A model generated the notes under the pieces. It was not told where the DNA came from, searched no databases, and worked only from the letters and a program-made list of their open reading frames with translations. Of a stretch of 64,000 nt of DNA, positions 21,074-46,503 are shown piece by piece; position 1 is the stretch's first letter; every line of letters begins with the position of its first letter. The position numbers were made by a program, and so were the translations under genes. The DNA comes from Candidatus Binatia bacterium (GTDB taxonomy: Bacteria; Desulfobacterota; Binatia; UBA9968): positions 2,986-66,985 of the forward strand of contig JBOHVS010000376.1 in the NCBI GenBank assembly GCA_050735975.1, in the 5' to 3' direction.

Positions 21074-21133
21074 TGATTTCCATTCTCGAGTTTTCAGTCC
21101 AGTAGAACTCGAGAGTGTTGGAAAACCTGTTTA

Positions 21134-21297: not shown

Positions 21298-21308
21298 GGA
21301 GGGAGACC

Positions 21309-23733: not shown

Positions 23734-23737
23734 ACAA

Positions 23738-23854: not shown

Positions 23855-23865
23855 GGAGTGAGTGA

Positions 23866-24681: not shown

Positions 24682-24685
24682 GAAG

Positions 24686-24816
24686 ATAGAGACAGAGACA
24701 GAGAGGGGATTCTGAATACTGGCTCCTGAGTAAAGAGAGACAGGAGCCGACAGAAAGATATGGACGGAGATGAAGAGGGAAGAGCGCGACGTTCCGAAGT
24801 GTTCTGTCTCTGTCTG
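24686..24816. repeat. Family R7 (AGACAGAGACAGAGA)
   Basis: AGAGACAGAGACAGAG at the left end, reverse-complementary CTGTCTCTGTCT at the right end. Confidence 0.75.
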
Positions 24817-24825
24817 GAATGAGTT

Positions 24826-26382: not shown

Positions 26383-26404
26383 GAAAGGTCGCGAACAACA
26401 ACGT

Positions 26405-30690: not shown

Positions 30691-30734
30691 AAGCGAATGA
30701 GCCAAGCAAACGTAAATCCGCAAGGAGGTGTCGG

Positions 30735-31775
30735 ATGAAAATGTTCATTTTAGCGGTCTTTTGTCTATGGGCCGCCAGTTCATCGGCTGCGGCGCAGGGG
30801 AAACCATCAAAGGTAGCCGAGCTCGGCGCCTACTCGGGAGCGGATCGCCAAAAAATTCTTGAGGCAGGAGCCAAGAAGGAAGGCAAGGTGGTTTGGTATA
30901 CGACCCTGATCGCTTACAAGGAAATCGTAAAGCTTTTTGAGGGGAAGTATCCGGGAATAAAGGTTGAGGCCTACCGATCTAACTCTACCGATCTCCTTAA
31001 AAGGTTCCTGGCGGAAGCGCAGGCGGGACGCCATTTAGTGGACGTTATAGAAACCACTCCTCCTTCCCTAATGGCCGGACGGGACGCCAAACTTCTTGCG
31101 CCGTATTTCTCGCCCCATTTGAAATTATATCCGGATGACTCCAAAGAAGAAGCCGGTAAGGGAACGGTTTTTTGGACAACGGACCGTGAATCCTTGATCG
31201 GTCTGGGCTACAACAAAAACCACATCAAGACGGCGGATGTTCCGAAAAATTTTGCCGATCTCTTGAAGCCCGAATACAAAGGAAAGTTCGCCGTCAGCGG
31301 GGACGCCACGGGAGCCCGAATGATCGGCGCTATGTTGCGCGCCAAAGGCGAAGAATTCGTTAAACGGCTAAAGGATCTGGATGTCAAAATGCACATGGTA
31401 TCAGGAGGGGCGCTTCAAGAGTTGCTCGCCGCGGGCGAAATGGCGATGTCGTTTTCCATTTTTCGTAATCACGTACAGGTCACTCAGGGCAAAGGTGGGC
31501 CGACCGAGTGGGTTCCCCTTGACCTGGTGGTGGCGAATGCGGGAGGCGCGGCTCTGCCGGCTCATACCAACAATCCCCATGCGTCGCTCCTGTTTATCGA
31601 TTTTCTCATCAGTCCGGAAGGACAAGATCTGCTGGCGGAAAAATTCAAGTACGCGAGTTCTATGAAACAATACCCATTCAAGCGCTGGTATCCGGAAAAG
31701 GGCCTGACGACGGACCAATATGAAAAGAACTTCAACAAATGGCAGAAGCTGCTGCGGCAAATTGCACGACGATGA
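30735..31775 (+). CDS. ABC transporter periplasmic substrate-binding protein (family 1, Fe3+/thiamine/polyamine-like)
   Basis: Signal peptide MKMFILAVFCLWAASSSAAAQ. SBP_bac_1-like pattern (VVWYTT..., AGRHLVDVIE). Confidence 0.85.
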   Translation: MKMFILAVFCLWAASSSAAAQGKPSKVAELGAYSGADRQKILEAGAKKEGKVVWYTTLIAYKEIVKLFEGKYPGIKVEAYRSNSTDLLKRFLAEAQAGRHLVDVIETTPPSLMAGRDAKLLAPYFSPHLKLYPDDSKEEAGKGTVFWTTDRESLIGLGYNKNHIKTADVPKNFADLLKPEYKGKFAVSGDATGARMIGAMLRAKGEEFVKRLKDLDVKMHMVSGGALQELLAAGEMAMSFSIFRNHVQVTQGKGGPTEWVPLDLVVANAGGAALPAHTNNPHASLLFIDFLISPEGQDLLAEKFKYASSMKQYPFKRWYPEKGLTTDQYEKNFNKWQKLLRQIARR

Positions 31776-31804
31776 TACAGCCGTCCATCGGTTAAACGTG
31801 AATC

Positions 31805-33541
31805 ATGAGCCGGGCGCTGGAGATCAGTCCGCGAGTTTGGGCCCGGAGTTCGGGGCGAGCGTCTAACCCCAACTTCTGGCTGTTTATCGTAACAGCGGCT
31901 GTTCTCGTTTATCTTGTCGTTCCACCGTTTTTCTTTATCCTCTCGGCAAGCTTTACAGCCGAGACCGGCACCAACGTCGGCGAGCTGACCTTAAAACATT
32001 ACGCCAGCATTGTAGGTTCGGTGGATGATTTCGGTGTCCTGCTCTGGAATTCGTTTGTTTTTTCCGTTGGCAGCGCGCTTGGAGCGTTGTTCTTTGGCAC
32101 TCTTCTGGCGTGGCTGGCGGAGCGCACCAATGCTCCCTTTCAAAGTGTCGCCTACGTTTCCGCGTTCGTCTCCTTCGGAATCCCGGGGATTGTTAAAGTC
32201 ATAGGTTGGATACTTTTGTTGGGGCCGGAAGCGGGTCTGATCAACGTTATCGCCGAAGACCTCACTGGCATCTCGCCGGTATTTAATCTTTTTTCCATGC
32301 CGGGAATGATCATGGTGGAGGCCTTCGTCTGGACGCCGGTGGTTTTCTTGCTTATGGCAACTCCGTTCCGATCCATGGATCCGACTCTGGAGGAAGCGGC
32401 GCTGACGGCGGGAAGCAATAACTGGCAGGTCTTCCGCAGGGTGACTCTTCCCCTGGCCCTGCCGAGTGTGCTCGCGGTATTGATCTTAACCTTCGTCCGT
32501 TCGCTGGAGGCCTTCGAGATTCCAGCTCTAATAGGGCTGCCGGCAGGCGTCGAAGTTCTGACTACGAAGATTTATCTCCAGATTCGAACCGGCTTTCTGC
32601 CGAGATACGGCGAAGCGAGCGCCTATTCCGTCCTATTGATCGCGCTCGTCGGCGTGGTTTTGCTTTTCTATCATCGCGTAACTTCGCAGGGCTATAAGTT
32701 TTCAACCGTTACCGGAAAAGGCTTCCGACCCCGGCGAATCGATCTGCGTTTTTGGCGCTGGCTGGGTGGAGCGATTCTGCTGATCCTTCCTCTACTGCAG
32801 ATTCTTCCACTGGTGGCTTTGACGTGGTCGTCCTTTCTGCCATACGTCCAGCCGCCGTCCCAAAAGGCCCTGGCGGCTCTCTCATTGGACAACTACTCGT
32901 CGGCTTTCAGCGACGGCGCAATCATCTGGGCGGTGTTGAACAGTCTTTTTGTCAGCGTGACATCCGCGACTGCGGTGGTGGCGGTAACCTTCGTCGCCGC
33001 TTGGGTCGTGGTGCGGACGAATATCTCAAAGCGCTGGACGCTAGACCATTTGGCGACCGTCCCTTTAGTGTTTCCGGGACTCGTTATGGGTGTGGCTATT
33101 TTGAAGATGTATCTAACTTTGCCGGTGCCCATATACGGAACTCTATGGATTATCTTCTTCGCATTTTTGGTTCGATATCTTCCTTACGGCATTCGCTTTA
33201 GTTATGCGGGACTGCTGAGCATTCATCGAGAACTCGAGGAGAGTTCCGCAACGTGCGGCGGCAACTGGAGGCAAACGGTCAGAAAAATTCTCTTTCCGCT
33301 GATGCTGCCCACTCTGTTCGCCGGCTGGATCTACGTCTTTCTCATCACCATTCGAGAGCTGTCGGTGGCACTGCTGCTGTACAGTCCGGGCTCCCAAGTC
33401 GTAGCGGTTGTCATTTGGGAGCTTTGGGATAATGGAAGAATTGGCGAAGTGGCGGCGTTTAGCTTGGTCTTCACTCTCGGTACGGTGTTGCTCGCAGCTT
33501 TCTTCAAGCGACTCGCTCACCAACACAGCCTCAACGTCTAG
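31805..33541 (+). CDS. ABC transporter permease, duplicated BPD-type (FbpB/ThiP-like)
   Basis: 578 aa with about 12 TM segments and two EAA-like loops (MDPTLEEAALTAGSNNWQVFRRVTLP and HRELEESSATCGGNWRQTVRKILFP). Confidence 0.85.
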   Translation: MSRALEISPRVWARSSGRASNPNFWLFIVTAAVLVYLVVPPFFFILSASFTAETGTNVGELTLKHYASIVGSVDDFGVLLWNSFVFSVGSALGALFFGTLLAWLAERTNAPFQSVAYVSAFVSFGIPGIVKVIGWILLLGPEAGLINVIAEDLTGISPVFNLFSMPGMIMVEAFVWTPVVFLLMATPFRSMDPTLEEAALTAGSNNWQVFRRVTLPLALPSVLAVLILTFVRSLEAFEIPALIGLPAGVEVLTTKIYLQIRTGFLPRYGEASAYSVLLIALVGVVLLFYHRVTSQGYKFSTVTGKGFRPRRIDLRFWRWLGGAILLILPLLQILPLVALTWSSFLPYVQPPSQKALAALSLDNYSSAFSDGAIIWAVLNSLFVSVTSATAVVAVTFVAAWVVVRTNISKRWTLDHLATVPLVFPGLVMGVAILKMYLTLPVPIYGTLWIIFFAFLVRYLPYGIRFSYAGLLSIHRELEESSATCGGNWRQTVRKILFPLMLPTLFAGWIYVFLITIRELSVALLLYSPGSQVVAVVIWELWDNGRIGEVAAFSLVFTLGTVLLAAFFKRLAHQHSLNV

Positions 33542-33550
33542 CCCGAATTA

Positions 33551-33602
33551 TGTCCGGACATTTTTCAATCTGCAATTTACAGTTTGCATTTTGCAATGCA
33601 TG
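33551..33602. repeat. Family R4 (TGCAAA/TTGCA-rich)
   Basis: The reverse complement of 33551-33600 matches 47611-47660 at 46 of 50 positions (counted by hand). Confidence 0.85.
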
Positions 33603-33730
33603 AATAATACGACTTAGCGCCCACCGTTTTGCGTAGTCTTTCTTCTTCAGTCGATTGACAGGATACACCCCTTGGAGTAGACGTGGCTCAGCGAAGTCAT
33701 TGCGCCGAAAAACAACGCAAGGAGGTATCG

Positions 33731-34726
33731 ATGATGACGAAGATCGCCTCGGCTGTTCTCGCCGTTCTATTCTCCGGCTTTTTGAGCAACGGAGTTGCGG
33801 CCACCCTTGATCAAGCCAAAAAAGAAAGGACCGTAGTCCTTTACGGCGCAGGCAATGTTGAGCACTGGCAGAAGCTTAACACGGCCTTTCAAAAGAAGTA
33901 CCCGTTTCTCAAAGTCGAGATGTTTCGCGGCAATTGGGAGAAAGTGCGAAATCGCGTTATGACCGAGGGACGCGCGGGCAGTCATTTCGTTGATGTCCTG
34001 CAGATCGACGGCATCAACGGCTGGGTGCTCAAGGAGGAGGGTTATCTTCAGGCCCACAAGTCCGCCGAAACGGAAGCTTTCCCGGAAGCATTTCGTGATC
34101 CGTCGGGCATGCTTCCCTGTTGCCTTGACACGCTTACCAATGTCATCGGTTTCAACACTAGCCTTGTAAAAAAGAACGACGCGCCCAAGAGCTATCAAGA
34201 TCTCCTCAATCCCCGATGGAAAAACAAGCTTGGGATGGATGCCGACGAGGGCGAGTGGTTCGCGGGGCTGGTTACGGTATGGGGAAAAGAAAAAACCGTT
34301 GACTACTTCCGGACCTTGATGAAACAAAATCCGTCGTTGCGCCGGGGGCACACGCTGCTTGCGAATCTTACCGGCGCCGGTGAGTTTCCCGTCGCCGTGA
34401 ATTTGTTCGGTTACCGTGTTATGGAAATGAAGGCTCAAAGCGCAACCATTGACTTGATTAAAGCGGATCCACTCATGGTTCGGCCGGCGCATATGGCGCT
34501 GGCACGGCGAGCCCCCCATCCGAATGCCGGGCGACTTTATATTGATTTCGCTCTTTCCGTTGAAGGACAACAGATCATGGCGTCCTTAGGTCGGACCGTT
34601 GTCCGTCCGGGAGTGAAGCCCAAGTATCCTGAATTGACGGAAGGATTGAAGCTTTATCCTATCAAGCCCGAGATGGCCAAGAATTACGAGGAGCTTTCGA
34701 AACTGTATTACTCGATTGTGAAGTAG
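33731..34726 (+). CDS. ABC transporter periplasmic substrate-binding protein, paralogue of 30735..31775
   Basis: ATG at 33731 after GGAGG. Signal peptide MMTKIASAVLAVLFSGFLSNGVAA. AGSHFVDVLQ parallels AGRHLVDVIE in the first SBP. Confidence 0.85.
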   Translation: MMTKIASAVLAVLFSGFLSNGVAATLDQAKKERTVVLYGAGNVEHWQKLNTAFQKKYPFLKVEMFRGNWEKVRNRVMTEGRAGSHFVDVLQIDGINGWVLKEEGYLQAHKSAETEAFPEAFRDPSGMLPCCLDTLTNVIGFNTSLVKKNDAPKSYQDLLNPRWKNKLGMDADEGEWFAGLVTVWGKEKTVDYFRTLMKQNPSLRRGHTLLANLTGAGEFPVAVNLFGYRVMEMKAQSATIDLIKADPLMVRPAHMALARRAPHPNAGRLYIDFALSVEGQQIMASLGRTVVRPGVKPKYPELTEGLKLYPIKPEMAKNYEELSKLYYSIVK

Positions 34727-34757
34727 ACAGCGACGATATGAAGAGGAGGAAACGACG

Positions 34758-35579
34758 ATGGCTGAGTATCAAACTCTTTTAGTCAACAAGAATGACGGCG
34801 TGACGACGGTCACATTGAATCGCCCGGAGAAGCGGAACGCTATGAGCCCGCAGCTCCATCGAGAGATGTATGATCTGCTCAACGATCTCCGTTACGACAA
34901 GGACACGAGAGTCATCGTGATCACGGGGGCGGGAGAAAGCTTCTGCGCCGGACAGGATTTGAAGCAATATTTTCTCGAAATGGATTCTCAACCGGAACGA
35001 GTGCGGGACGAGGTGAGGGAAAAATCCCGCCAGTGGCGAAATGAGATCCTACGCAAAATGCCGCAGCCGGTGATTGCGAAGATCAACGGTTGGGTGTTTG
35101 GCGGCGGGTTCACCGTGGTAACCGGTTGCGACATCGCCATCGCGGCGGACGACGTGCAGTTCGGACTTTCGGAAGTCAATTTCGGCCATTTCCCCGGGGG
35201 TGAAGTGACCATCGTATTGACGGAGCATCTGCAGCCCAAGCACGGGCTCTACTACGCGCTCACGGGGAAAACCATGACCGCGAAAGAAGCCGAGCGCATC
35301 GGTTTGATCACCAAGGCTGTGCCGCGCGCCGATTTAGATAAAGAGGTCATGGAGATTGCGAATAACCTAAAAGAAAAGGCGCCGTCGGCGCTAAACGCCG
35401 TCAAAGAAGCGTGGTACTACACTTTCTACTCCAACCCGGAAGTCGCCTATGAAATATCCGGGTTGATTTCCGACAAGGCCAAACAAGCGATCGGCGGCCG
35501 GCCCGGATTACAACAATTCGCTCGCAAAGAATACCGGCCAGGACTCGGTTCGTATAAATTTGACGAAAAGAAGGAATAG
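34758..35579 (+). CDS. Crotonase, hydroxycinnamoyl-CoA hydratase/lyase (HCHL)-like subfamily
   Basis: VTLNRPEKRNAMSPQLHREM, GAGESFCAGQDLKQYF, NGWVFGGGF, GLSEVNFGHFPGG, C-terminal ...QQFARKEYRPGLGSYKF, which resembles the HCHL tail. Confidence 0.85.
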   Translation: MAEYQTLLVNKNDGVTTVTLNRPEKRNAMSPQLHREMYDLLNDLRYDKDTRVIVITGAGESFCAGQDLKQYFLEMDSQPERVRDEVREKSRQWRNEILRKMPQPVIAKINGWVFGGGFTVVTGCDIAIAADDVQFGLSEVNFGHFPGGEVTIVLTEHLQPKHGLYYALTGKTMTAKEAERIGLITKAVPRADLDKEVMEIANNLKEKAPSALNAVKEAWYYTFYSNPEVAYEISGLISDKAKQAIGGRPGLQQFARKEYRPGLGSYKFDEKKE

Positions 35580-35657
35580 ATCACGGGATTTTATTTCTTG
35601 CACTCCAGAAGTGTGAAAACATTTCATGTTGCCAACCGTAGTGACAAAAAACCTTTA

Positions 35658-35778
35658 TCGCGCCAAGACGCCAAGAACGCAAAGAAAATTCTTTTTTTCT
35701 TCGAACTTGGCGGCCTTTGCGCCTTTGCGCGGGACACTGAATCGGAAATCGCAAATCTAAAATCCAAAATTAAAAGTG
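35658..35778. repeat. Composite R6 + R5
   Basis: CGCCAAGACGCCAAG (35661-35675, identical to 13681-13695) ... TTGGCGGCCTTTGCGCCTTTGCGCG, then AATCTAAAATCCAAAAT. Confidence 0.8.
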
Positions 35779-35786
35779 GGGAAGTA

Positions 35787-36941
35787 ATGGATTTCCGATT
35801 GCCCGAAGAGCTGCAGATGCTGAAAGACACGGTCAGGAAGTTCGTCGACAACGAGCTGATTCCGATCGAGATGCACAGCCAGGAAGATAATGAGCTCAAG
35901 CCCGAGATCCGTGAGAGATTGGAAAAGAAGACTAAAGAGATGGGGTTGTGGATGTTCGATGTGCCGGAAGAGTATGGCGGCGCGGGGCTCGGCAGTCTGG
36001 CGCAAGTCTTGGTATGGGAAGAGATGTGCCGCACCATCGCCCTCCCGTCGCGCGGGCAGGGAATATTCGGACCGGAAGTGCGGCCGATTCTCTATGCGCT
36101 GAACGACGAACAAAAACAGCGCTTCTTCTATCCGATCCTTAGAGGCGAGAAGCATTTGTGTTTCATGCAGACCGAGCCCGATGCCGGCTCTGACCCGGGG
36201 TCGATGAAGACGCGCGCCGTGCGCCAAGGAGATCAGTACGTCGTCAACGGCACCAAGCGCTTCATTACCGGAGCGGACAAAGCGGATTTTGGCCAGCTTA
36301 TGGCCGTGACCGACCCGAGTAAAGGCTCGCATGGGGGCATCTCTTGCTTCATGGTCGATATGAAATCGCCGGGGCTCAAGATCACTGCCAGATATAAGAC
36401 CATGATGGGCGAAGAGCCGTGCGAGATCGTTTTTGACGATCTCAAAGTGCCGGCCCAGAATCTCGTGGGCGGAGAAGGCGAGGGCTTCAAGCTGGCGCAA
36501 AAGTGGCTCGGTATCGGTCGCCTGAAACATGGCGCGCGCGCTTTGGGCGTCTCGGAGCGCTGCATCGAAATGGGCTCGCGCTACGCGAAGCAGCGCGTCA
36601 CGTTCGGCAAGCCGCTTTCCGAACGGCAGGGGATCACTTTTAAACTTGCCGATTCTTACGTTGAACTGCACGCGGCGCGTCTGATGGTCTACCAGGCTGC
36701 GTGGAAGAACGACCAAAGAGAAGACATCCGCACCGAAGCCTACATGGCCAAGATGTTCGCCGACGAAATGTCCTTCCGCGTCGTCGATCGCGTGCTGCAG
36801 ATTCACGGCGGCATCGGTCTGACGCTGGATCTGCCGCTAGCAAAGTGGTTTGTCGATCAGCGCAGCCGGATGATTACCGAAGGCGCGTCCGAAGTTATGC
36901 GCATGGTCATCGCCCGGGAAGTTTTAAAGAAATACAGTTAA
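35787..36941 (+). CDS. Acyl-CoA dehydrogenase
   Basis: ATG at 35787 gives MDFRLPEELQMLKDTVRKFVD, parallel to the 42133 paralogue. The upstream 63 codons of ORF 35598 are repeat sequence. QTEPDAGSDPGS, ITEGASEVMR. Confidence 0.9.
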   Translation: MDFRLPEELQMLKDTVRKFVDNELIPIEMHSQEDNELKPEIRERLEKKTKEMGLWMFDVPEEYGGAGLGSLAQVLVWEEMCRTIALPSRGQGIFGPEVRPILYALNDEQKQRFFYPILRGEKHLCFMQTEPDAGSDPGSMKTRAVRQGDQYVVNGTKRFITGADKADFGQLMAVTDPSKGSHGGISCFMVDMKSPGLKITARYKTMMGEEPCEIVFDDLKVPAQNLVGGEGEGFKLAQKWLGIGRLKHGARALGVSERCIEMGSRYAKQRVTFGKPLSERQGITFKLADSYVELHAARLMVYQAAWKNDQREDIRTEAYMAKMFADEMSFRVVDRVLQIHGGIGLTLDLPLAKWFVDQRSRMITEGASEVMRMVIAREVLKKYS

Positions 36942-36958
36942 CCGCGTTTCAAAACGAA

Positions 36959-37129
36959 TTCACCGCGGAGACGCTGAGGGCACGGAGAGGGAAAAGGATT
37001 TTCACCACAGAGGACACGAAGAGCGCGAAGGAAGAAAGCATCGTTTTCAAAATCGATCATTATCAGTCTTCGTGGCCTTCGTGACCTTCGTGGTGAGGAT
37101 TTCTCTGCGAACTCTGAGCCTGTGGTGAA
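36959..37129. repeat. Nested double palindrome (family R11, single copy in the window)
   Basis: Outer arms TTCACCGCGGAGACGCTGAGGGCACGGAGAG / CTCTGCGAACTCTGAGCCTGTGGTGAA. Inner arms TTCACCACAGAGGACACGAAG / CTTCGTGACCTTCGTGGTGA. Confidence 0.75.
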
Positions 37130-37155
37130 ATAACACTTGCTCCTCTGGTCGGGCT

Positions 37156-37551
37156 CTAGTTTCCCTGCGCGAAGGACAGCTCCCAACGGTTCCCGTCCGG
37201 ATCGAAGAGATTGATGGAGTAATTGATTCCGTCCCTGTGGGGCCGGACTTTTTCAATATTGGCGCCCATTTCTTTTAGCGCCACTAGAGCCTTCTCTTGC
37301 TCCTGCCATGGAATATTGAGCGTGTGATGCGGGTCGACGGCTCGCGGGCCCTTTGAGGCGTCGAAAAGATGGACTTCGAAATTGCCGAGCCGGACGTCCA
37401 CTTCCTTGACCTGGCCGGTCTTGATCTGTTGTTCATCAGGGGTAACTCGACGCACCACTTCTCCGCCCAGCACTTTCGTGTAAAATTCTTCCGCTTTACC
37501 GAGATCCTTGGCGCTCATGGCGAACGTTCTTAGTCCTTTAATGTCAAACAT
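37156..37551 (-). CDS. VOC/glyoxalase-bleomycin resistance family protein
   Basis: 131 aa with a paired beta-alpha-beta-beta-beta pattern: GLRTFAMSAKDLGKAEEFYTKVLGG ... HHTLNIPW ... FDPDGNRWEL. Confidence 0.8.
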   Translation of the reverse strand: MFDIKGLRTFAMSAKDLGKAEEFYTKVLGGEVVRRVTPDEQQIKTGQVKEVDVRLGNFEVHLFDASKGPRAVDPHHTLNIPWQEQEKALVALKEMGANIEKVRPHRDGINYSINLFDPDGNRWELSFAQGN

Positions 37552-37630
37552 GAGAAACCTCCCGAATAGGATTTTGCCCTCAGGTTATTTCCGCGCTGAC
37601 TAGGTTGTCAAGTAGCCTGAATGGAGGATA

Positions 37631-37834
37631 GTGGTTCAATTTGGCCCAAGATCCCTCACGGAGCTTGTCCTGAGACTCTTCGCTGCGCTCGGGTCCGACT
37701 ATACGCATCGCGACCCATCGATGGGGCTCGAGTTTCGAAAGTTGCTGCAAGAACGAGCCGGTCGCGGCGAGATTCCCCAATCCGCCGTGCAGAAGATTCT
37801 GTACGATAACCCTAGCGCTTTCTATGGGCTGTGA
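37631..37834 (+). pseudogene. 5'-truncated amidohydrolase_2 remnant (C-terminal ~65 aa only)
   Basis: LGSDYTHRDPS matches the family GSDYPHxD motif (compare FASDYPHWDG in 16249..17274). The terminal KILYDNPSAFYGL is the typical family C-terminus. No N-terminal barrel is encoded upstream. Confidence 0.5.
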
Positions 37835-37857
37835 CGACGACCGCGACAGAAGTCAAA

Positions 37858-37937
37858 GGTCGGAGGTCAGAAATCAGAGGTCAGACGGCAGAGATCGGAG
37901 ACCCTTCCTCGATACTCTTTGCACTTTGCTCTTTGCC
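37858..37937. repeat. Family R3 copy
   Basis: GGTCGGAGGTCAGAAATCAGAGGTCAGAC ... GCACTTTGCTCTTTGCC. Abuts the AKR stop codon. Confidence 0.7.
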
Positions 37938-37939
37938 AG

Positions 37940-38920
37940 TTAGATATTGACTCGATCCATATCTCTGGCGCGCGGGCCGGCGGCAACTCCAGGTGGAAAG
38001 ACCGCGTTTAACCGGTTCAGGTCGTCTTTGCTGAGCTTGATGTCGACGGCCTTGAGGTTTTCCTCCAAATGCCGGCGGCTCTTGTTGCTGGGAATCGGGA
38101 TGATGTCTTCGCCCTGGGCCAGCAACCACGCAAGCGCGATCTGCGCCGATGTCGCTGATTTCTCTTTGGCGAATTCTTCGAAGCGGGTGAGCAGGTTTAG
38201 ATTGTGCTCGATGTTGCCCGATTGAAAGCGCGGGTGATTGTTACGGCTGTCGTTTTCGGAAATGTCATTACGGCTATGCACGGCACCCGCGAAGAAGCCT
38301 CGTCCGAGAGGAGAGTAGGCCATGAAACCCATGCCGAATTCCCGGCACGCCTGAATGTTGCCGGCTTCGGGATCGCGGGACCACAATGAATACTCCATTT
38401 GCAATGAGGCGATGGGATGCACTTTTCGCGCCCGGCGGATGGAATCGGCGCTCGCTTCCGAAAGACCGACATAACGGGCCTTGCCTTGCTCTACGAGCCG
38501 CGCCATGGCGCCGACCGATTCCTCGACGGGGACTTTAGGATCGACGCGCGACATGCAGAATATGTCGAGACAGTCGATGCCGAGACGCTGCAGGCTTTGC
38601 TCGCAGTTCTGAGTTAAGTAATCGGGTGAGCTGCCGCTGCGATTTCCACTCTCATCGGGCGCGCGGGGGCTACCCGACTTGGAATGAATCACGATCCTTT
38701 CGCGCCTGCCTTTGAGCGTTCGGGCGATCAATTCGTGATTATGGCCGTTGCCGTAACTGGCCGACGTATCGAGAAAGTTGATGCCGAGATCGAAGGCGCG
38801 GTGCAAGGTGGCTATGGATTCGTTGTCATCGGCACTCCCATAGACACCGGACATGCTCATGCAGCCGAGGCCCAACCGCGAGACCTCGAACCCGGTAGTT
38901 CCGAACTTGCGATATTCCAT
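37940..38920 (-). CDS. Aldo/keto reductase
   Basis: ATG at 38918-38920 gives MEYRKFGTTGFEVSRLGLGCMSMSG. Also FDLGINFLDTSASYGNGHNE and YVGLSE. Confidence 0.9.
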   Translation of the reverse strand: MEYRKFGTTGFEVSRLGLGCMSMSGVYGSADDNESIATLHRAFDLGINFLDTSASYGNGHNHELIARTLKGRRERIVIHSKSGSPRAPDESGNRSGSSPDYLTQNCEQSLQRLGIDCLDIFCMSRVDPKVPVEESVGAMARLVEQGKARYVGLSEASADSIRRARKVHPIASLQMEYSLWSRDPEAGNIQACREFGMGFMAYSPLGRGFFAGAVHSRNDISENDSRNNHPRFQSGNIEHNLNLLTRFEEFAKEKSATSAQIALAWLLAQGEDIIPIPSNKSRRHLEENLKAVDIKLSKDDLNRLNAVFPPGVAAGPRARDMDRVNI

Positions 38921-39039
38921 ATAACTTCCCTGTCGCTGATGGCTAAGGAGGAACGGGCCGAGGTCAGAAGTCAAGGGTTGAAAAGCTTTGCTTCTCTATC
39001 CATGACTCCACCTCCTTAGCAATTATCACCGCATTTCGA

Positions 39040-40665
39040 CTACCCAGTCTCCCATTTGACTGAGATCGAGCTGTGGACCCGCTTTACTCCAGGCACATTG
39101 CGTGCAGCCTCTTCGGCGGCGGCTTTTTGCTTTCCCGATAGGACCGCGCCGGTAAGGTAGGCTGTATCATTAACAAACGCCACGACCACGCCCTCGACCG
39201 CCCGCTGGTGAATAGCTCTGTCTATCTGATTTTCTATCGCTTTTTGCCACGAAGCCGCCGAAGGGGGCGGATTAGCGTCCGGAAATTTCTTTTCCGGCGG
39301 CGACACATCGGACGGTCCGCCGGGTGCCATGTTACTGCTGCCAAGCGGGTTTCCGTTTGTCCCTGGAGGGGTGGGGATGGGTTTCAACGTCGTGGGGTCT
39401 CTGTCGCGCGGCGCTTGCTCGCTCTCAGGTTTTTGTGCGGTAGCGAAATCCTGGTACGGCGGAAGCTCAGGCGCCGGCTGCTTCTTTTCAAGCACACGGT
39501 CAAAAAAACTTTGCGATAGGGGATGATTGGATCCGTAAAATTCCCACAGACCAATCATACCCATCCCGATGACCAGCAACCCTGCCACTTTTGTAGTCCT
39601 GCGTCCTGCCTTTCGCGCGAACGGCGCTGGGATCGGTTCGCTGAATTCGCTGAAAATGCTGGCTGTTTCCGGGGGCGGCAATCTCCATTGATCCTCCAAC
39701 GGGGGATCCTCTGACGGGGGATCATCCAACGGTTTTCGAGCCGTCAACGTGCGTACGCGTCTAGAAATCGTGTCACCGTTCGGATCAAGCCAGGACAACG
39801 CAACGGAATCATCTTCTGGATCATGCAAAACTTTTTTAGAAATCCAATTTCGGTATAGGTCCGCGTTGAGCCGCTCTGCGTGAATAGGCTGCCGCATCTC
39901 GTTCTGCAGAGCGCATGCGTTGATCGCGCGAGGGTTGGCGCTTTCTTCAACGAAAACACGGTCGTTGACGGCCCTAAGATCATACCCGTCAGGGAAAACG
40001 ACGAGCCCTCTTACCTTGATGTCAGATGTCTGTCTGTGATCGTCAAAGAAGGCGGTAAGCTTATCTTCAACGATTCTCATCGCTTGCTTCGCTCGCCTGA
40101 CCGGGTTGTCAATCGGGAAGTCTCTTCCATCGGATAGGGTCAAGAGCCAAGGTCCTTCAGGAATTAATGATTTATGAACACTCGCCTGCTCAATGCCACA
40201 AGGATCGACGATTGCCGCGACCGTAATCCCGTGAGGAGCGACCGCCAGGAGATCGGCGTCGAGATCCATTCCAAACCATGGTGTCTCGCTCGGGTCCAAT
40301 CGTGAGAAGGCTTCCGCCAGGTTTTCATTGATCTTCTTCTTAAAGCCGGAAGCGTCGTAAGGCTTACGACGAGATTCCGTTTGTTGATCAACTTGATCAA
40401 GAGGTGGCGTGATTTCGGATTCTGGCTCAGGGGATGATGTCGCCTGCAGTTCTTCTGCGCTGCTGTCAGTAATCTCGGTTGGACGTTGCTGGTTCAGATC
40501 CGCCCCGCACTTTCCGCAAAATCCGTCAACTTGCTCGCCTAAATTGCCGCACGATGGACACTGCTGGCCGGAGGCTTGGTCTGGAGGCGCAAAGCGCAAA
40601 CCATGATTTGGGCAATAGTTATAAGAATCAGGATATACTAAACGACAAAGCCGACAGTATTTCAC
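39040..40665 (-). CDS. Membrane-anchored multidomain protein: double Zn-ribbon + degenerate NERD-like domain + TM + Pro-rich linker + BON domain
   Basis: GTG start. CRLC..CPNHG and CPSCG..CGKCG ribbons. DADLLAVAPHGITVAAIVDPCG ... DNPVRRAKQAMRIVEDKL resembles a NERD layout. TM segment VAGLLVIGMGMIGLWEFYG. C-terminal VVVAFVNDTAYLTGAVLSGKQKAAAEEAARNVPGVKRV is BON-like. Confidence 0.65.
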   Translation of the reverse strand: MKYCRLCRLVYPDSYNYCPNHGLRFAPPDQASGQQCPSCGNLGEQVDGFCGKCGADLNQQRPTEITDSSAEELQATSSPEPESEITPPLDQVDQQTESRRKPYDASGFKKKINENLAEAFSRLDPSETPWFGMDLDADLLAVAPHGITVAAIVDPCGIEQASVHKSLIPEGPWLLTLSDGRDFPIDNPVRRAKQAMRIVEDKLTAFFDDHRQTSDIKVRGLVVFPDGYDLRAVNDRVFVEESANPRAINACALQNEMRQPIHAERLNADLYRNWISKKVLHDPEDDSVALSWLDPNGDTISRRVRTLTARKPLDDPPSEDPPLEDQWRLPPPETASIFSEFSEPIPAPFARKAGRRTTKVAGLLVIGMGMIGLWEFYGSNHPLSQSFFDRVLEKKQPAPELPPYQDFATAQKPESEQAPRDRDPTTLKPIPTPPGTNGNPLGSSNMAPGGPSDVSPPEKKFPDANPPPSAASWQKAIENQIDRAIHQRAVEGVVVAFVNDTAYLTGAVLSGKQKAAAEEAARNVPGVKRVHSSISVKWETG

Positions 40666-41148
40666 GGTCTCATCTAAACATACTGAAAATAGTGCCGCAA
40701 CATTGCACGCGCACTTAACGAACTTACCTAACCGCCCTTGATTCCGAAGGGGATGTCATAATCCTTTTCAATCTTCTTTTCAAGAAATTTCTGAGAAACG
40801 CAGCTATCGTGTATTGGATCCGGTAAGAAAGTTCTTTAAGAAACCCAAAGGACTTATTTAGGTCTTCCCCTGAACTGCAAGCGCGCTTTGCTCTTTCGTG
40901 GTTGCAGGGCGGTATGTTTGGATATCTACGGGAAGGCAAAGAGATCGTTCGATTTCGTCTTCCAGGCGTCCAAGAAGGCGAGGATACTCCTTTCTAAAAT
41001 GGACCAAGTTTGTACGGGACTCCGAGCAATGAGAAATCTGACAGGGGTTTCGTCAAAGGGCTTTACGGGCGATAGCAAAAGTTGATAAAGAGATTGAGTT
41101 CGGTCCCGACCAAAAGAAAATTCACGATAGAAAGAAGGAGGGTGCCAA

Positions 41149-41973
41149 ATGGCAGTGACGAAAGAATACAAGACGGTCAAAGTTGACAAAGAAGACGGGA
41201 TCACGTGGGTCATTTTGAACCGGCCGGAGAAGAGAAACGCGATGAACCCGCAGCTTCACTACGACATGCTCGAAGCGCTGACGGAGCTGGAGGTCGACAA
41301 GGAAACGCAAGTGGTGGTAATTACGGGCGCCGGGCCGAGCTGGTGCGCAGGGCAGGATCTGCGCGAGTACTTTCGCGGCACCGACGATAACGCGATCGAA
41401 AGACGTAAGGCGAGCTGGGCCTCTCAGGAGTGGCGCTGGCGCAGGCTGTTCACCTTCCCAAAACCCACCATCGCCATGGTCAACGGGTTTTGCTTCGGCG
41501 GGGCTTTCACGCCGCTCATCGCCTGTGATTTTGCCATCGCCGCCGAGGACGCGATCTTTGGTTTGAGCGAAATCAACTGGGGTATCTTTCCGGGCGGATT
41601 GGTGAGCCGGGTTTTGGCGGATGCTATGAGTTATCGTGACGCCATGTACTACATCATGACGGGAGATCCGTTCGACGGCAAGAAGGCCGCGGAGTTGAAG
41701 CTCGTGAATTACGCTGTACCGAAGGAAAAGCTGCGTGAAGAAACAGTCAAGCTGGCGAAGAAGCTGATGGAGAAGAATCCGCAGGTGCTTAGAGCGGCGA
41801 AGGAAGTTTACAAGTACTGCCGCAATATGGATTACAACCAGGCCGAGGATTACATGTCGGCGAAGGGAACCGCTTTGCGGCTGAGCGATCCGGAAAAGGG
41901 ACGCGAGACCGGTATGAAGCAGTTCCTTGACGAAAAGACCTACCGGCCGGGATTGGGCACCTACAAGCGATAA
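41149..41973 (+). CDS. Hydroxycinnamoyl-CoA (feruloyl-CoA) hydratase/lyase-like crotonase (HCHL subfamily)
   Basis: Colinear with Pseudomonas HCHL as I recall it: KTVKV..EDGI.WVILNRPEKRNAM, KPTIAMVNG.CFGG, FGLSEINWGI.PG, NP.VLRAAK, and the diagnostic tail GMKQFLDEKTYRPGLGTYKR. SD AAGGAGGG upstream. Confidence 0.9.
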   Translation: MAVTKEYKTVKVDKEDGITWVILNRPEKRNAMNPQLHYDMLEALTELEVDKETQVVVITGAGPSWCAGQDLREYFRGTDDNAIERRKASWASQEWRWRRLFTFPKPTIAMVNGFCFGGAFTPLIACDFAIAAEDAIFGLSEINWGIFPGGLVSRVLADAMSYRDAMYYIMTGDPFDGKKAAELKLVNYAVPKEKLREETVKLAKKLMEKNPQVLRAAKEVYKYCRNMDYNQAEDYMSAKGTALRLSDPEKGRETGMKQFLDEKTYRPGLGTYKR

Positions 41974-41974
41974 G

Positions 41975-42117
41975 CAGACAGAGACAGAGATGAAGAGACA
42001 GAGAGGGATGAAGAGATAGAGACAGAGAAAAACAGACAGAGATAGTGAAAGAGATAGAGCCCTTGAAGGCCATTAGGTTCTTGGGCGGGATCTCTGTCTC
42101 AAATCTCTGTCTCTGTG
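41975..42117. repeat. Family R7 copy
   Basis: CAGACAGAGACAGAGATGAAGAGACAGAGAG ... TCTCTGTCTCAAATCTCTGTCTCTGTG. Confidence 0.75.
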
Positions 42118-42132
42118 TAATGGTTGATCAAC

Positions 42133-43299
42133 ATGGATTTCAACTTACCCGAAGAGCTTCAGGTACTGAAGGAAACGGTTCGAAAGTTCGTCGATCGAGA
42201 GCTGATCCCTCTGGAGCGGGAGTGCCGCCCGGAGGGCGAGGAGATGCCGGAAAAGTTCATTAAGCCGCTGCAGGAAAAAGCGAAAGCCATCGGATTGTGG
42301 TTGCTTGATGTGCCGCAGGAATATGGCGGGGCCGGTCTCGATCTGCTCAGCCGGTGCGTGATCATGGAAGAGGTGGCGCGGACGGTCGCGATTCCTTTTC
42401 GCTACGCGCCGATCTTTGGCCCTGAAGTGAGGCCGGTGCTGTTTCATTGCAACGAGGAGCAGAAAGAGCGGTTCCTTTTCCCGGTCATGCGGGGAGAGAA
42501 GCGTATGTGCTTCGCGCAGACCGAGCCGGATGCAGGCAGCGACCCCGCGGGGATGAAAACTCGCGCCGTTAGAGACGGCGATCATTATGTTGTCAATGGC
42601 ACAAAGCGCTTTATCACCGGTGCAAAAAACGCTGATTACGCGCAAGTGATCGCGGTCACCGATCCCGAGAAACGGGCGCGCGGCGGCGTTACTTGCTTCA
42701 TTGTCGACATGAAGGCTCCGGGAGTTACGCTTGAGCGGCTTTGGCCGACCATGATGGGCGATACGCCGGGTCAAATTCTATTCGAGAACGTACGAGTGCC
42801 TGCGGCCAACATTATCGGCGGCGAAGGCCAGGGCTTCTCCATCGCCCAGAAATGGATTCAAGAGGGACGCATACGCGGGCACGGCGCGCGGCCGGCCGGC
42901 ATCGCGCAGCGGGCGCTCGATATGATGATCGAGTACTCCAAGGTGCGGACGACGTTTGGCCGTCCGCTTTCGGATCGCCAGGCGATTCAGTTCATGATCG
43001 CCGACTCGGCGATGGAACTGCACGCCTGCCGATTGATGGTTTACGAATGCGCCTGGCGTCATGACCGGGAGGAAGACGTTCGCCAGCTTTCCTATATGAC
43101 CAAGATCATGTGCGCCGAAATGGCGAGCCGAGTCGTGGATCGCTCGATCCAAGTTCACGGCGGTGTCGGGCTCACTCGCGACCTGCCTCTCGAATGGTGG
43201 TACCGCCAGGTGCGGAGCATCCGCATCACCGAAGGGACGCCGGAAGTCCTACGTTGGCGACTAGCAGAACATCTCATCAAAAGTCATAAACCATTATGA
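42133..43299 (+). CDS. Acyl-CoA dehydrogenase, paralogue of 35787..36941
   Basis: MDFNLPEELQVLKETVRKFVD, QTEPDAGSDPAG, NGTKRFITGA, ITEGTPEVLR. Confidence 0.9.
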   Translation: MDFNLPEELQVLKETVRKFVDRELIPLERECRPEGEEMPEKFIKPLQEKAKAIGLWLLDVPQEYGGAGLDLLSRCVIMEEVARTVAIPFRYAPIFGPEVRPVLFHCNEEQKERFLFPVMRGEKRMCFAQTEPDAGSDPAGMKTRAVRDGDHYVVNGTKRFITGAKNADYAQVIAVTDPEKRARGGVTCFIVDMKAPGVTLERLWPTMMGDTPGQILFENVRVPAANIIGGEGQGFSIAQKWIQEGRIRGHGARPAGIAQRALDMMIEYSKVRTTFGRPLSDRQAIQFMIADSAMELHACRLMVYECAWRHDREEDVRQLSYMTKIMCAEMASRVVDRSIQVHGGVGLTRDLPLEWWYRQVRSIRITEGTPEVLRWRLAEHLIKSHKPL

Positions 43300-44549
43300 C
43301 GGCGATCGCGGATGCAAGTTCCCTAGCCCGCGTTGCGGGAGAGGGTCAGGGTGAGGGTGCAACCGCTCTCCTGCCCGGCTTCCGTGTCCTGGATTTGAGT
43401 TCTTCGATGGGGGCATTTTGCGGCAAGCTGCTGCGCGACCTGGGAATGGACGTTATCAAGGTCGAACAGCCGGGAGGCGACGCCGCCCGCTCCGAGCCGC
43501 CCTTTGCCAAAGGCCATACTCACCGCGAAGGAAGCCTTCGTTTCGCGTACCTCAACGCGGGCAAGCGCAGCATCACGCTCGACATCACGAAGGAGACCGG
43601 CCGGAAGCTCTTGTTCGACTTGGTGGCGCGCTCTGATATTGTGCTGGAAACCTTCGAACCGGGCTATCTGGCCGCGCACCATATCGGCTACGAGTCCATG
43701 ATAGCACGCCAGGAAAAAATAATTTTGGTTTCCCTCACCGGTTTCGGCCAGGACGGACCCTACGCTCATTTTAAGACACCGGATATCGTTGGCACGGCTA
43801 TGGGCGGTTTGCTCTATATCAGCGGCGATCCAAAGCTCACGCCATGCAATCCACCGGAGACGCAATCGTATTATTACGCGAGTCTTTTCGCGGCTTACGG
43901 CGTGATGCTCGCGCTCTGGCAGCGGCAGACGCGCGGCATCGGCGCGTTCATCGATGCGTCGATTCAAGCGAGCATGGCGCTGCACGAGCACGTCGCTTTC
44001 AACTATTCGGCGGAGGGGCGGGTGATGAAGCGCGCCGGCAGCCAGCACCAGCACAATGCGCCGGCCAATCTTTTTAAGTGCAAGAACGGTTACATCGCGC
44101 TCTTCGTCACGCAAAATCACTGGCCGCTTCTGCTGAAGGTTTGGGAAGATCATGCGCCGGAGCTCGACGATCCAAAGTGGATCAACAGCAACTTGCGGCG
44201 CGCTAACGCCGACTATATCAACGCGCAAGTGACTTCTTTCACTTCCCGGTTTCTCAAAGAAGACCTCGCCGAACTGATGCAAAAGCACGGCATACCGGGT
44301 CTGCCGGTCAACTCGCCGTCAGACTTTATGAAGGACCCGCACATACGGGCGCGGGGGTTTTTTAGCAAAGTCACACACCCGGTGCTTGGTCCCTATGATC
44401 AGCCGGGCAGCCCATTCATGGTGGACGGCAAACGCTCGGCGCCTTTGCCACCGCCGCTTTTGGGGCAGCACAACGAGGAAGTGTTTTGCGGCGAACTCGG
44501 TCTCACCCGGCGAGACCTGGAAGTGTTGGTCGCGGACGGCGTGATCTGA
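43296..44549 (+). CDS. Family III CoA-transferase, A-type subunit
   Basis: ATGA overlap with the ACAD. Colinear with module A of the 798-aa fusion (for example GGLLYISGDPKLTPCNPPETQSYYYASLFAAYGVMLAL versus GGLMYISGDPSLPPCKAPETQAYYFGSLFAAIGVLAAL). Confidence 0.9.
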   Translation: MTAIADASSLARVAGEGQGEGATALLPGFRVLDLSSSMGAFCGKLLRDLGMDVIKVEQPGGDAARSEPPFAKGHTHREGSLRFAYLNAGKRSITLDITKETGRKLLFDLVARSDIVLETFEPGYLAAHHIGYESMIARQEKIILVSLTGFGQDGPYAHFKTPDIVGTAMGGLLYISGDPKLTPCNPPETQSYYYASLFAAYGVMLALWQRQTRGIGAFIDASIQASMALHEHVAFNYSAEGRVMKRAGSQHQHNAPANLFKCKNGYIALFVTQNHWPLLLKVWEDHAPELDDPKWINSNLRRANADYINAQVTSFTSRFLKEDLAELMQKHGIPGLPVNSPSDFMKDPHIRARGFFSKVTHPVLGPYDQPGSPFMVDGKRSAPLPPPLLGQHNEEVFCGELGLTRRDLEVLVADGVI

Positions 44550-44550
44550 A

Positions 44551-44641
44551 TGCGAATGTCAAATTGCAAAGTGCAAAACGGAGATTGTGAAATTTCGGAC
44601 AAAGATTTGCGTTTTGCAATTTGCATTCTGCAATTTGCATT
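44551..44641. repeat. Family R4 palindromic copy
   Basis: AAATTGCAAAGTGCAAAACG ... CGTTTTGCAATTTGCATTCTGCAATTTGCA. Lies between the two CoA-transferase genes and contains the spurious ATG 44587. Confidence 0.8.
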
Positions 44642-44655
44642 GGACCGGGGAATCC

Positions 44656-45870
44656 GTGCATAGCGCGAATCGTATACTCGAGGGCGTTCGCATCCTGACT
44701 TTCACGACCGGGTACGCCGGTCCTTACGCCGGCAGGTTGTTGTCCGGGTACGGCGCCGAAGTCATTAAAATAGAGTCGCGCAAAGGCGGACTCGATACTT
44801 TCCGCCATTACGGACAGCACAAAGATATCGACGCGGCGCCCAGGTTCATCGAATGCAATCTCGGGGTTCGCTCCTTTTCCGTGAACCTTAAACACCCTAT
44901 CGGGGTTCGGCTCATCAGGGAGTTGGCCGGCAAATCGGATGCGATCTTGCAGAATTTTCGGCCCAGGGTGTTGGATAAACTGGGTTTGGGCGACGACGAA
45001 CTCAGAAAGGTCAACCCCAAACTGGTAATTTTGAAATTGCCGGGCTTCGGTTCCGAAGGACCCAAAAGCGGCTATGGGACCTGGGGATTCAATCTCACGG
45101 CCTTTTCCGGCATGACCTACCTCTGGAATCATCCTGAGCAGGATCGACCCATCGGCAGTCAAGGAGTTTATCCCGACCATCTGGGCTTCATTATGGGGCC
45201 GACCATCATGGTCGCCGCGCTGCTGCGCAGCCGGCTCACAGGGAAGGGAGTCTCCGTCGATCTGGCGCAGATTGAAGGCACCGCCTACACGCTGGGGTCG
45301 ACGTACTTGGATGCGGCCGTGAACAGCCGTGATCCACAGCCGAAAGGCAACCGCGACCCGGTTGCCGCGCCCCACGGCTGCTACCCCTGCGAGGGGGAGG
45401 ATCGTTGGTGCGTCATCTCAGTTCGGACTGAAGAAGAATGGCGTAGCTTTTGTCAAGTCATCGGCCAGACGGAATTGGCGAGCGATGCTCGTTTCGCGGA
45501 CCTTCAGTCCCGGATAAAGCATCTCCGTGAGCTTGACGTTATTGTTCAGCGATGGACGGAAGCGAGAAGCGCGGAAGAGGTGATGGCCAAGCTCCAATCC
45601 ATGGGCGTCCCCGCCGGTGTTGTGCAAACCGGCGCGGATCTCCTCAAGGACCCGCAGTTGCGACACAGGAACTACTTTGCCGCATTTTCGGACTCCCTTA
45701 TCGGTCCTTTCGAAATTCCTCGCGGCGGATTTTTGTTCAAAGGGATGACTGAAGAACCGCTGCGGCTGCCTAACAGGTTCGGCTCCGACAACGAGCAAAT
45801 TCTGGGAGATATTCTAGGTTACGACAAAGCATCCATTGCCAAGTGGCAAACCGAGGAAATTTTGACTTAG
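44656..45870 (+). CDS. Family III CoA-transferase, B-type subunit
   Basis: Colinear with module B of the fusion (IESRKGGLD, NLTAFSGMTYLWNHP, IGSQGVYPDH). GTG at 44656 is preferred because ATG 44587 lies inside a palindromic repeat. The start is uncertain. Confidence 0.85.
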   Translation: MHSANRILEGVRILTFTTGYAGPYAGRLLSGYGAEVIKIESRKGGLDTFRHYGQHKDIDAAPRFIECNLGVRSFSVNLKHPIGVRLIRELAGKSDAILQNFRPRVLDKLGLGDDELRKVNPKLVILKLPGFGSEGPKSGYGTWGFNLTAFSGMTYLWNHPEQDRPIGSQGVYPDHLGFIMGPTIMVAALLRSRLTGKGVSVDLAQIEGTAYTLGSTYLDAAVNSRDPQPKGNRDPVAAPHGCYPCEGEDRWCVISVRTEEEWRSFCQVIGQTELASDARFADLQSRIKHLRELDVIVQRWTEARSAEEVMAKLQSMGVPAGVVQTGADLLKDPQLRHRNYFAAFSDSLIGPFEIPRGGFLFKGMTEEPLRLPNRFGSDNEQILGDILGYDKASIAKWQTEEILT

Positions 45871-45966: not shown

Positions 45967-46503
45967 GTGATTAACCCACCTGAAAGCATCGAAACGCGAA
46001 GGTTGCGGCTGCGGAAACCGGTGCTAGAGGACGCCGAAGTCATTTTTCGGCAGTATGCCCAGGATCATGAGGTGACGAAGTATCTCACCTGGTATCCAAA
46101 TCGATCGGTAGAGCAGACTCGAGAATTTGTTCGTTTGTGCATCGCCGCTTGGGAGGCGGAGAAATCTTTCCAGTGGGCGATCGTTCAAAAGAAACGGCAT
46201 CAGCTTATCGGGATGATTGGCTTCAGAGTCGACGGGCACAAATGGGAATTGGGTTACGTGTTAACTCGGGCGTATTGGGGTAGAGGATACATGACCGAGG
46301 CCGTCAAAGCTCTCGTAGACTGGGCGTTAAAGCAGTCGGAGGTTTATCGTATCTGGGCGGTTTGCGACGTGGAGAACCCCGCTTCGGCTCGCGTGATGGA
46401 TAAGGCAGGTATGACGAGAGAAGGTATTCTGCGTCGCTGGTCCATGCACCCGAACATTAGTGACGAACCGAGAGACTCTTACTGCTATTCCATAACGAAG
46501 TAG
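45967..46503 (+). CDS. GNAT family N-acetyltransferase (RimJ/RimL-like)
   Basis: TRRLRLRKPVLEDAEVIF, IGMIGF, RAYWGRGYMTEAVKALVDWA, NPASARVMDKAGMTREG. Confidence 0.85.
   Translation: MINPPESIETRRLRLRKPVLEDAEVIFRQYAQDHEVTKYLTWYPNRSVEQTREFVRLCIAAWEAEKSFQWAIVQKKRHQLIGMIGFRVDGHKWELGYVLTRAYWGRGYMTEAVKALVDWALKQSEVYRIWAVCDVENPASARVMDKAGMTREGILRRWSMHPNISDEPRDSYCYSITK

Follow-up and report, generated by a model that had tools for sequence, protein, structure and literature searches.

Two paralogous CoA-transferase/acyl-CoA dehydrogenase/hydratase-lyase modules with a divergent HCHL clade in Candidatus Binatia

We analysed a stretch of 64,000 nt (hereafter the window) from Candidatus Binatia bacterium (UBA9968; assembly GCA_050735975.1, contig JBOHVS010000376.1, positions 2,986-66,985, forward strand), and found that it carries two paralogous three-enzyme modules, each consisting of a family III CoA-transferase, an acyl-CoA dehydrogenase (ACAD) and a hydratase/lyase of the hydroxycinnamoyl-CoA hydratase/lyase (HCHL) family. 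In cassette 1 (28294-36941) the order is a fused family III CoA-transferase, an inserted ATP-binding cassette (ABC) uptake system, HCHL1 and ACAD1, and in cassette 2 (41149-45870) it is HCHL2, ACAD2, CoA-transferase A and CoA-transferase B (Table 1). The modules most likely represent a CoA-transferase/ACAD/HCHL route that shortens 3-arylpropionates by two carbons without ATP, a reading to which we give an even chance on the sequence evidence set out below. The original prediction for this DNA had proposed two pairs of an HCHL-like crotonase and an ACAD, with the phenol-binding tyrosine replaced, that would desaturate and then cleave saturated and possibly non-phenolic acids. Its interpretation is partly supported. 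The HCHL/ACAD pairs are real, but the family III CoA-transferase of each cassette, which lies outside the region that it covered (34758-43299), had been overlooked.

Family identity and active-site residues of the crotonases

Family membership was tested with the NCBIfam model NF006588 ('p-hydroxycinnamoyl CoA hydratase/lyase'), which has an equivalog cut-off of 276 bits on the whole-protein score. Both crotonases passed it, HCHL2 (protein P0003) with 414.2 bits and HCHL1 (P0001) marginally with 283.7 bits, and each of them is followed by an ACAD as predicted. The two proteins share 45% identity, and both keep the family-specific C-terminal tail. In a HMMER alignment, HCHL2 matched the HCHL of Pseudomonas fluorescens (PDB 2J5I/2VSS) end to end (E 2.5e-99), and since the identity to 2J5I is ~57%, the crotonase fold is not in doubt. 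We then placed the proteins in a 111-row IQ-TREE phylogeny, for which HCHL homologues were extracted and key columns tabulated from 80 named loci of a species-level genome collection and from plasmid records. Grouping with ordinary enoyl-CoA hydratases, which the original prediction had named as the outcome contrary to it, was not seen: all three HCHL-family paralogues of the genome fell inside the HCHL family, and the ordinary crotonases of the window formed the outgroup on branches longer than 4. HCHL1 lay in a 5-row subclade with an approximate likelihood-ratio test (aLRT) value of 99.

On the alignment with 2J5I/2VSS, HCHL2 keeps Tyr75 (its own Tyr74), Glu143 and Gly151, and carries Thr for Ser123 and Ser for Tyr239 (EDYMSAK). 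HCHL1 carries Glu143 and Tyr75 together with His38, Gln70 and Arg98; at the Tyr239 column it shows Gly in the MAFFT alignment and a gap-adjacent Glu in pairwise alignments, with no Tyr in either. The replacement of the phenol-binding tyrosine was thus correctly called for both proteins, and the Binatia orthologues have A/S/G/T/M at this position. The catalytic Glu stands in the motif G-L-S-E-(I/V)-N, which reads FGLSEINWG in HCHL2 and FGLSEVNFG in HCHL1, and the motifs that had been quoted for the protein at 41149 (FGLSEINWG, EDYMSAK and the tail, GMKQFLDEKTYRPGLGTYKR) were verified in the sequence. In the P. fluorescens enzyme we take Tyr239, contributed by the neighbouring subunit, to bind the 4-hydroxyl of the substrate, and Tyr75 to be the second phenol-side residue. 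Across the Q-type clade described below, position 75 varies between Tyr and Phe.

Contig C302 (9064-10065 and 17236-18048) carries the third HCHL-family paralogue of the genome and, ~7 kb from it, an ACAD 91% identical to ACAD1. The paralogue scored 321.6 bits on NF006588 and has Glu at position 70, Phe75 and Ser123. These two genes could have arisen by recent duplication or reflect heterogeneity between strains; contamination of the assembly is 5.4%.

Distribution of Tyr239 in the HCHL family

Tyr239 (in the form YLY or YIY) was confined to one nested subclade of the tree, which covered 108 family members. This subclade holds the canonical enzymes of Pseudomonas, Burkholderiaceae, Acinetobacter, Halomonadaceae, Acidobacteriaceae and actinomycetes, and its loci are MarR-ech-vdh-fcs or comparable operons (MarR-HCHL-aldehyde dehydrogenase-Fcs). 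Elsewhere in the canonical main clade, the residue is Thr, Ser, Met, Phe, Ala or His, and PDB 6P5U has Ala. Many of the members without Tyr239 adjoin MarR and FerA-type ligase genes in Sphingomonadales and Hyphomicrobiales, and one, from Polymorphobacter, adjoins protocatechuate and gentisate dioxygenase genes. Tyr239 is thus a derived feature of one subclade. Because it is limited to that subclade and is also missing in FerA-linked operons, some of them near genes for protocatechuate or gentisate breakdown, its absence is no evidence for a non-phenolic substrate. The step from Tyr loss to non-phenolic substrates taken in the original prediction did not hold, and the same correction applies to any inference of a new specificity from the absence of Tyr239 alone.

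A distinct Q-type clade

The window enzymes belong to the second main group of the tree (50 rows, aLRT 93), which also contains sequences from Acidobacteriota and many Alphaproteobacteria. By their residues and position in the tree, they belong to a distinct HCHL clade, here called Q-type, characterised by His38/Gln70/Arg98 and a small residue at position 239. When 35 canonical and 40 Q-type sequences were compared, three columns discriminated fully between them (Asn38 to His, Met70 to Gln and Gln98 to Arg), and further differences from canonical to Q-type were Gln87 to Arg, Thr36 to Gln and Leu130 to Phe. The divergent HCHL1 also has His38/Gln70/Arg87/Arg98. By analogy with rat enoyl-CoA hydratase and with 4-chlorobenzoyl-CoA dehalogenase numbering, residues 70-75 and ~92-99 presumably line the acyl pocket, which would place the Q-type signature residues in the substrate pocket.

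In one Binatia family (f3; L034:9261-11020, L035 and L046), the place of the ACAD and CoA-transferase partners is taken by HCHL2 in tandem copies, together with a TctC/TctA transporter and an ADP-forming acyl-CoA synthetase of the FerA type. The tandem copies are ~95% identical and show only 13 differences, all located at residues 64-91 and 125-126 and including Q70M, Y75F and R87Q; this pattern looks like a localised natural specificity switch or a gene-conversion patch. Elsewhere, Q-type HCHL genes lie beside genes for FerA-type ADP-forming ligases, TctC receptors, LigXa/VanA-like Rieske oxygenases and molybdenum aldehyde oxidases. At two alphaproteobacterial loci (L056:5623-7992 and L061), the gene for the large subunit of a molybdopterin aldehyde oxidase/xanthine dehydrogenase ends 9 nt before the Q-type HCHL gene, and this enzyme is a candidate aldehyde-oxidising partner instead of Vdh.

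The ACAD partners

ACAD1 and ACAD2 start at MDFRL (35787) and MDFNL (42133), respectively, rather than at the listed TTG codons, and the 63-codon extension on the listed ACAD1 open reading frame is translated repeat sequence. Both proteins contain all three ACAD Pfam domains (N, M and C). They are 56% identical over 385 residues, in agreement with the close relationship first proposed for them. The catalytic Glu is kept in an (I/R)ITEG motif; in ACAD2 it aligned with the YEGT Glu of the Thermus ACAD 1UKW, and ACAD1 aligns with ACAD2 through the same motif.

The ACADs that adjoin Q-type HCHLs formed one clade (16 rows, aLRT 97) from Binatia-type bacteria, Acidobacteriota and Alphaproteobacteria, and this clade was separate from the HcaD type. 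The Q-type clade and its own ACAD lineage travel together in three phyla. ACAD1 grouped with alphaproteobacterial ACADs encoded between FerA-like ligases and Q-type HCHLs (56-63% identity), and ACAD2 with Binatia and Acidobacteriota copies. A test for orthology with Pcd and HcaD, the ACADs of the HCHL systems compared below, was negative: ACAD1 and ACAD2 shared only 28-32% identity with the protein encoded where Acinetobacter has hcaD, and they lay in their own clade. Despite this non-orthology, they may function analogously to Pcd/HcaD.

Conservation of the modules in relatives

Orthologues of HCHL2 with 72-93% identity were present in 38 of the 41 related genomes searched, and database proteins at 80-86% identity are named as coming from Candidatus Binatia or 'Deltaproteobacteria' metagenome-assembled genomes (MAGs). 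ACAD2 came directly after HCHL2 at 14 of 19 related loci, or at 13 of 18 when the unpublished genome G006 is left out, and wherever the flank was long enough, CoA-transferase A was the next gene after ACAD2. Longer stretches, in which HCHL2 and ACAD2 are followed by CoA-transferases A and B or, at some distance, by a fused CoA-transferase, were found across the order, and Acidobacteriota MAGs contain the same HCHL2-type operon at 70% identity. For cassette 1, the adjacency of HCHL1 and ACAD1 was observed at 12 of 16 related loci, a count that includes one uninformative locus from G006. The fused CoA-transferase was found upstream of HCHL1 at 11 of these 16, in some cases directly adjacent without the transporter genes.

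We rejected a chance neighbourhood of HCHL and ACAD in view of this conserved adjacency (14/19 and 12/16) and of the single clade formed by the ACADs of Q-type HCHLs. Because the ACAD partner is conserved, saturated acids are probably desaturated before hydration and cleavage, as the original prediction had suggested. No 3-hydroxyacyl-CoA dehydrogenase or thiolase gene was found in either cassette, which is expected if the crotonase itself cleaves, and the conserved units in relatives comprise only CoA-transferase, HCHL and ACAD.

Proposed pathway and alternative readings

In the proposed route, the CoA-transferase would move CoA from a donor thioester to a 3-substituted propionic acid, and the ACAD would form the 2-enoyl-CoA and deliver the electrons to electron-transfer flavoprotein (ETF). 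The HCHL-family enzyme would then hydrate the double bond through its Glu143 equivalent and split the product by a retro-aldol reaction into an aldehyde and acetyl-CoA. The released acyl-CoA could act as donor for the next round, giving a 'CoA loop' that needs no ATP. The substrates would most likely be 3-arylpropionates from plants or lignin, such as compounds of the phloretate, dihydrocaffeate or dihydroferulate type, and specificity would differ between the two modules. In favour of aromatic substrates, the genome has genes for LigB-type dioxygenase homologues and a FerA-like ligase, for at least six LigXa-like oxygenases, for gentisate-dioxygenase-like cupins and for LigI-like amidohydrolases (one at 46556-47560), and the ligase, Rieske oxygenase and aldehyde oxidase genes beside Q-type HCHLs in other genomes point the same way. 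The CoA-transferases are BbsEF-like, and their best NCBIfam match was succinate--glutarate CoA-transferase, far below its cut-off.

Several observations weigh against arylpropionate cleavage. Neither cassette has an aldehyde dehydrogenase or a MarR regulator, the aldo-keto reductase at 37940 is not conserved nearby in relatives, and Tyr239, the phenolate ligand of the only well-studied enzyme, is missing. In addition, an anionic substrate, such as a dicarboxylate, would be just as compatible with the invariant Arg98/His38, with the BbsEF-like CoA-transferases and with the TctC receptors. The substrate clues point both ways, with arylpropionates favoured as the most likely acids.

It is possible, though clearly less probable than arylpropionate cleavage, that the same module logic serves a substrate that is not 4-hydroxyphenyl, such as a non-phenolic aryl, alicyclic/terpenoid or omega-carboxy (dicarboxylate) compound of the propionate type, whose polar or anionic group would be bound by Arg98/His38/Gln70/Arg87. 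The missing Tyr239 would fit this, but its absence is the common state of the family and extends to FerA/MarR-linked operons beside protocatechuate genes. His38, Gln70 and Arg98 are invariant in the 40 Q-type sequences against N/M/Q in the 35 canonical ones, and the changes between the f3 tandem copies (Q70M, Y75F and R87Q) would mark specificity sites; the aromatic pocket residues Trp146 and Tyr/Phe75 are nevertheless retained. The BbsEF-like transferases score highest on dicarboxylate-type enzymes, although the NCBIfam matches of transferases and ACADs alike are far below the cut-offs. Likewise, TctC-type receptors recur beside the clade, but so do aromatic O-demethylase-like and aldehyde-oxidase genes beside Q-type members. 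The near-universal presence of HCHL2, 72-93% conserved in the order, would be unusual for a peripheral aromatic pathway. A bolder proposal, which we regard as rather doubtful, is that Q-type HCHLs, dedicated ACADs and BbsEF-like CoA-transferases constitute an ATP-independent 'CoA-loop' that cuts non-phenolic acids (for example omega-carboxy or alicyclic propionates) by two carbons in a retro-aldol reaction, and that this loop would be a core and near-universal Binatia trait and not a peripheral ferulate route.

A lyase reaction would not be needed at all if the crotonases were hydratases only and fed a beta-oxidation pathway that obtained its dehydrogenase, and its thiolase or aldolase, from genes located elsewhere, for instance from the thiolase-like aldolase/DUF35 pair at 21276-22897. 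Additional ACAD and crotonase genes do occur in the large cluster at 18.6-28 kb, next to genes for a thiolase-like protein and an acyl-CoA ligase, and HCHL1 is barely above the HCHL cut-off (283.7 against 276 bits). The HCHL tail is, however, retained in both proteins, which the tree places among the HCHLs at a great distance from the ordinary crotonases of the window, and the units conserved in relatives contain no dehydrogenase or thiolase, which makes a hydratase-only role improbable. We consider it highly improbable that the modules run reductively, as in the reduction of hydroxycinnamoyl-CoA during caffeate respiration, or condense an aldehyde with acetyl-CoA. Caffeate respiration does employ CoA loops based on a transferase, and caffeyl-CoA reductase CarC (PDB 6FAH) ranked high among proteins of solved structure related to ACAD2 (232.8 bits), but CarC is no closer to ACAD2 than generic short-chain ACADs are, Etf genes are not in the cassettes, and the reduction of caffeate involves no lyase. 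A role with formaldehyde/3-hydroxypropionyl-CoA, or with dimethylsulfoniopropionate/methylmercaptopropionate in the manner of DmdC/DmdD, was dropped, as only weak sub-threshold matches (AcrC-like ACAD, 3-hydroxypropionyl-CoA dehydratase) spoke for it.

Should the substrates be arylpropionates, the modules would let an abundant uncultured lineage of soil bacteria use reduced plant phenolics at a lower energy cost, and they might supply biocatalysts that make aromatic aldehydes without a ligase. Otherwise, a large clade of proteins has been misannotated. Thousands of such proteins are labelled 'p-hydroxycinnamoyl-CoA hydratase/lyase' or 'vanillin synthase' in databases. The Q-type clade differs from every assayed HCHL member at pocket-region positions, and it is coupled to CoA transfer rather than to ATP-dependent ligation.

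Features of the cassettes and neighbouring genes

Table 1 Features of the two cassettes and their conserved neighbours in the window.
Feature	Position	Strand	Remarks
Crotonase-fold enoyl-CoA hydratase	27423..28238	+	NF006588 164 bits, below HCHL threshold; upstream of fused CoA-transferase, position kept in some relatives
Fused two-module family III CoA-transferase, cassette 1 activating enzyme	28294..30690	+	798 aa; two CoA_transf_3 stretches
Solute-binding protein, double ABC permease, second solute-binding protein	30735..34726	+	Inserted in cassette 1; present in many, not all, relatives
HCHL1 (P0001), divergent Q-type HCHL-family hydratase/lyase	34758..35579	+	273 aa; NF006588 283.7 bits
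Repeat-containing spacer	35580..35786	.	Source of the false N-terminal extension on the ACAD1 open reading frame
ACAD1, acyl-CoA dehydrogenase	35787..36941	+	Three ACAD Pfam domains; start MDFRL
Small single-domain VOC/glyoxalase-fold protein	37156..37551	-	Convergent with ACAD1; frequent conserved neighbour
HCHL2 (P0003), Q-type HCHL-family hydratase/lyase	41149..41973	+	274 aa; NF006588 414.2 bits; matches 2J5I, E 2.5e-99
ACAD2, acyl-CoA dehydrogenase	42133..43299	+	Three ACAD Pfam domains; start MDFNL
Family III CoA-transferase subunit A	43296..44549	+	Start overlaps ACAD2 stop by 4 nt; conserved after ACAD2
Family III CoA-transferase subunit B	44656..45870	+	Open reading frame as listed begins at 44587
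GNAT acetyltransferase, conserved downstream neighbour	45967..46503	+	Copies 65-70% identical in loci L039 and L040

The position of the VOC-fold gene after ACAD1 is kept in at least four relatives (loci L133, L135, L136 and L140), and its product may act as an epimerase or in the detoxification of aldehydes. Another CoA-ester cluster lies on the plus strand upstream of cassette 1 (18672-27271). It contains two adjacent ACAD-like genes, of which the second shows no Pfam N and M domains, and besides a thiolase-like protein it encodes two crotonases of the ordinary type, an AMP-forming ligase and an alpha/beta-hydrolase. Downstream of cassette 2, the Amidohydro_2 protein at 46556-47560 on the minus strand is 35% identical to the amidohydrolase encoded beside the Polymorphobacter protocatechuate dioxygenase gene and is perhaps LigI-like. 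Its neighbours are an HpcH/HpaI-type aldolase and a TAXI-TRAP transporter, and this region, which includes 47880-48743 on the plus strand, may be a fragment of a lower pathway after ring fission. A scan of 33.5-47 kb for promoters and terminators returned no more sites than shuffled sequence and so defined no operon boundaries.

Comparison with known systems

The closest well-studied relative is HCHL/Ech of P. fluorescens AN103 (2J5I/2VSS), which belongs to the same NF006588 family and has Glu143, Tyr75, Gly151, Trp146 and the C-terminal tail in common with the window enzymes. The latter differ from it in Tyr239 to Ser/Gly, Ser123 to Thr, Asn38 to His, Met70 to Gln, Gln98 to Arg, Pro149 to Phe and Asn152 to Gly. 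Unlike the canonical MarR-ech-vdh-fcs operons, the cassettes lack fcs, vdh and MarR; their partners are instead an ACAD and a family III CoA-transferase, and their HCHLs lie in a separate clade.

The combination of an ACAD with an HCHL for dihydro acids is already known, and 'desaturate, then cleave' has published precedent. In a 2025 study (PMC12642758), P. fluorescens SBW25 could not do without the phloretoyl-CoA dehydrogenase Pcd (PFLU3296), the ACAD of its ech operon, when growing on phloretate or phloretate methyl ester, and the route proposed there leads from phloretoyl-CoA to p-coumaroyl-CoA and on to Ech. In Acinetobacter, hcaD is listed in the hcaABCD set (PMC3560178). As in these systems (Acinetobacter loci L116 and L126), an ACAD beside an HCHL would let saturated 3-arylpropionyl-CoA enter the hydratase/lyase route; however, the window ACADs are non-orthologous, and activation would be by a CoA-transferase, whereas the Pcd and hca systems use the ATP-dependent Fcs.

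The FerA/FerB-type operons of Sphingomonadales combine an ADP-forming feruloyl-CoA synthetase with a hydratase/lyase. Their HCHL members resemble the window enzymes in that they too lack Tyr239 (Thr/Ser/Met/Phe) and have Gly152, with Ile/Leu at position 149. FerA-like ligases also accompany Q-type HCHLs in Binatia family f3 and in some Alphaproteobacteria. The Sphingomonadales enzymes nevertheless keep Met70/Gln98, carry Asn/Ala/Ser as residue 38 and belong to the other main clade, and the window cassettes have CoA-transferases.

A trio of family III CoA-transferase, ACAD-fold enzyme and crotonase is likewise found in the benzylsuccinate system BbsEF/BbsG/BbsH and in the carnitine system CaiB/CaiA/CaiD, and the two-subunit or fused form of the window transferases resembles BbsEF. 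The crotonases of the Bbs and Cai systems, however, only hydrate or dehydrate, while those of the window are of the C-C-cleaving HCHL family and have no downstream dehydrogenase or thiolase. Taken together, the modules appear to be an uncharacterised variant of the CoA-dependent, non-beta-oxidative pathway for phenylpropanoid side-chain cleavage, in which the clade signature, the separate ACAD lineage and the CoA-transferase in place of the ligase would be new.

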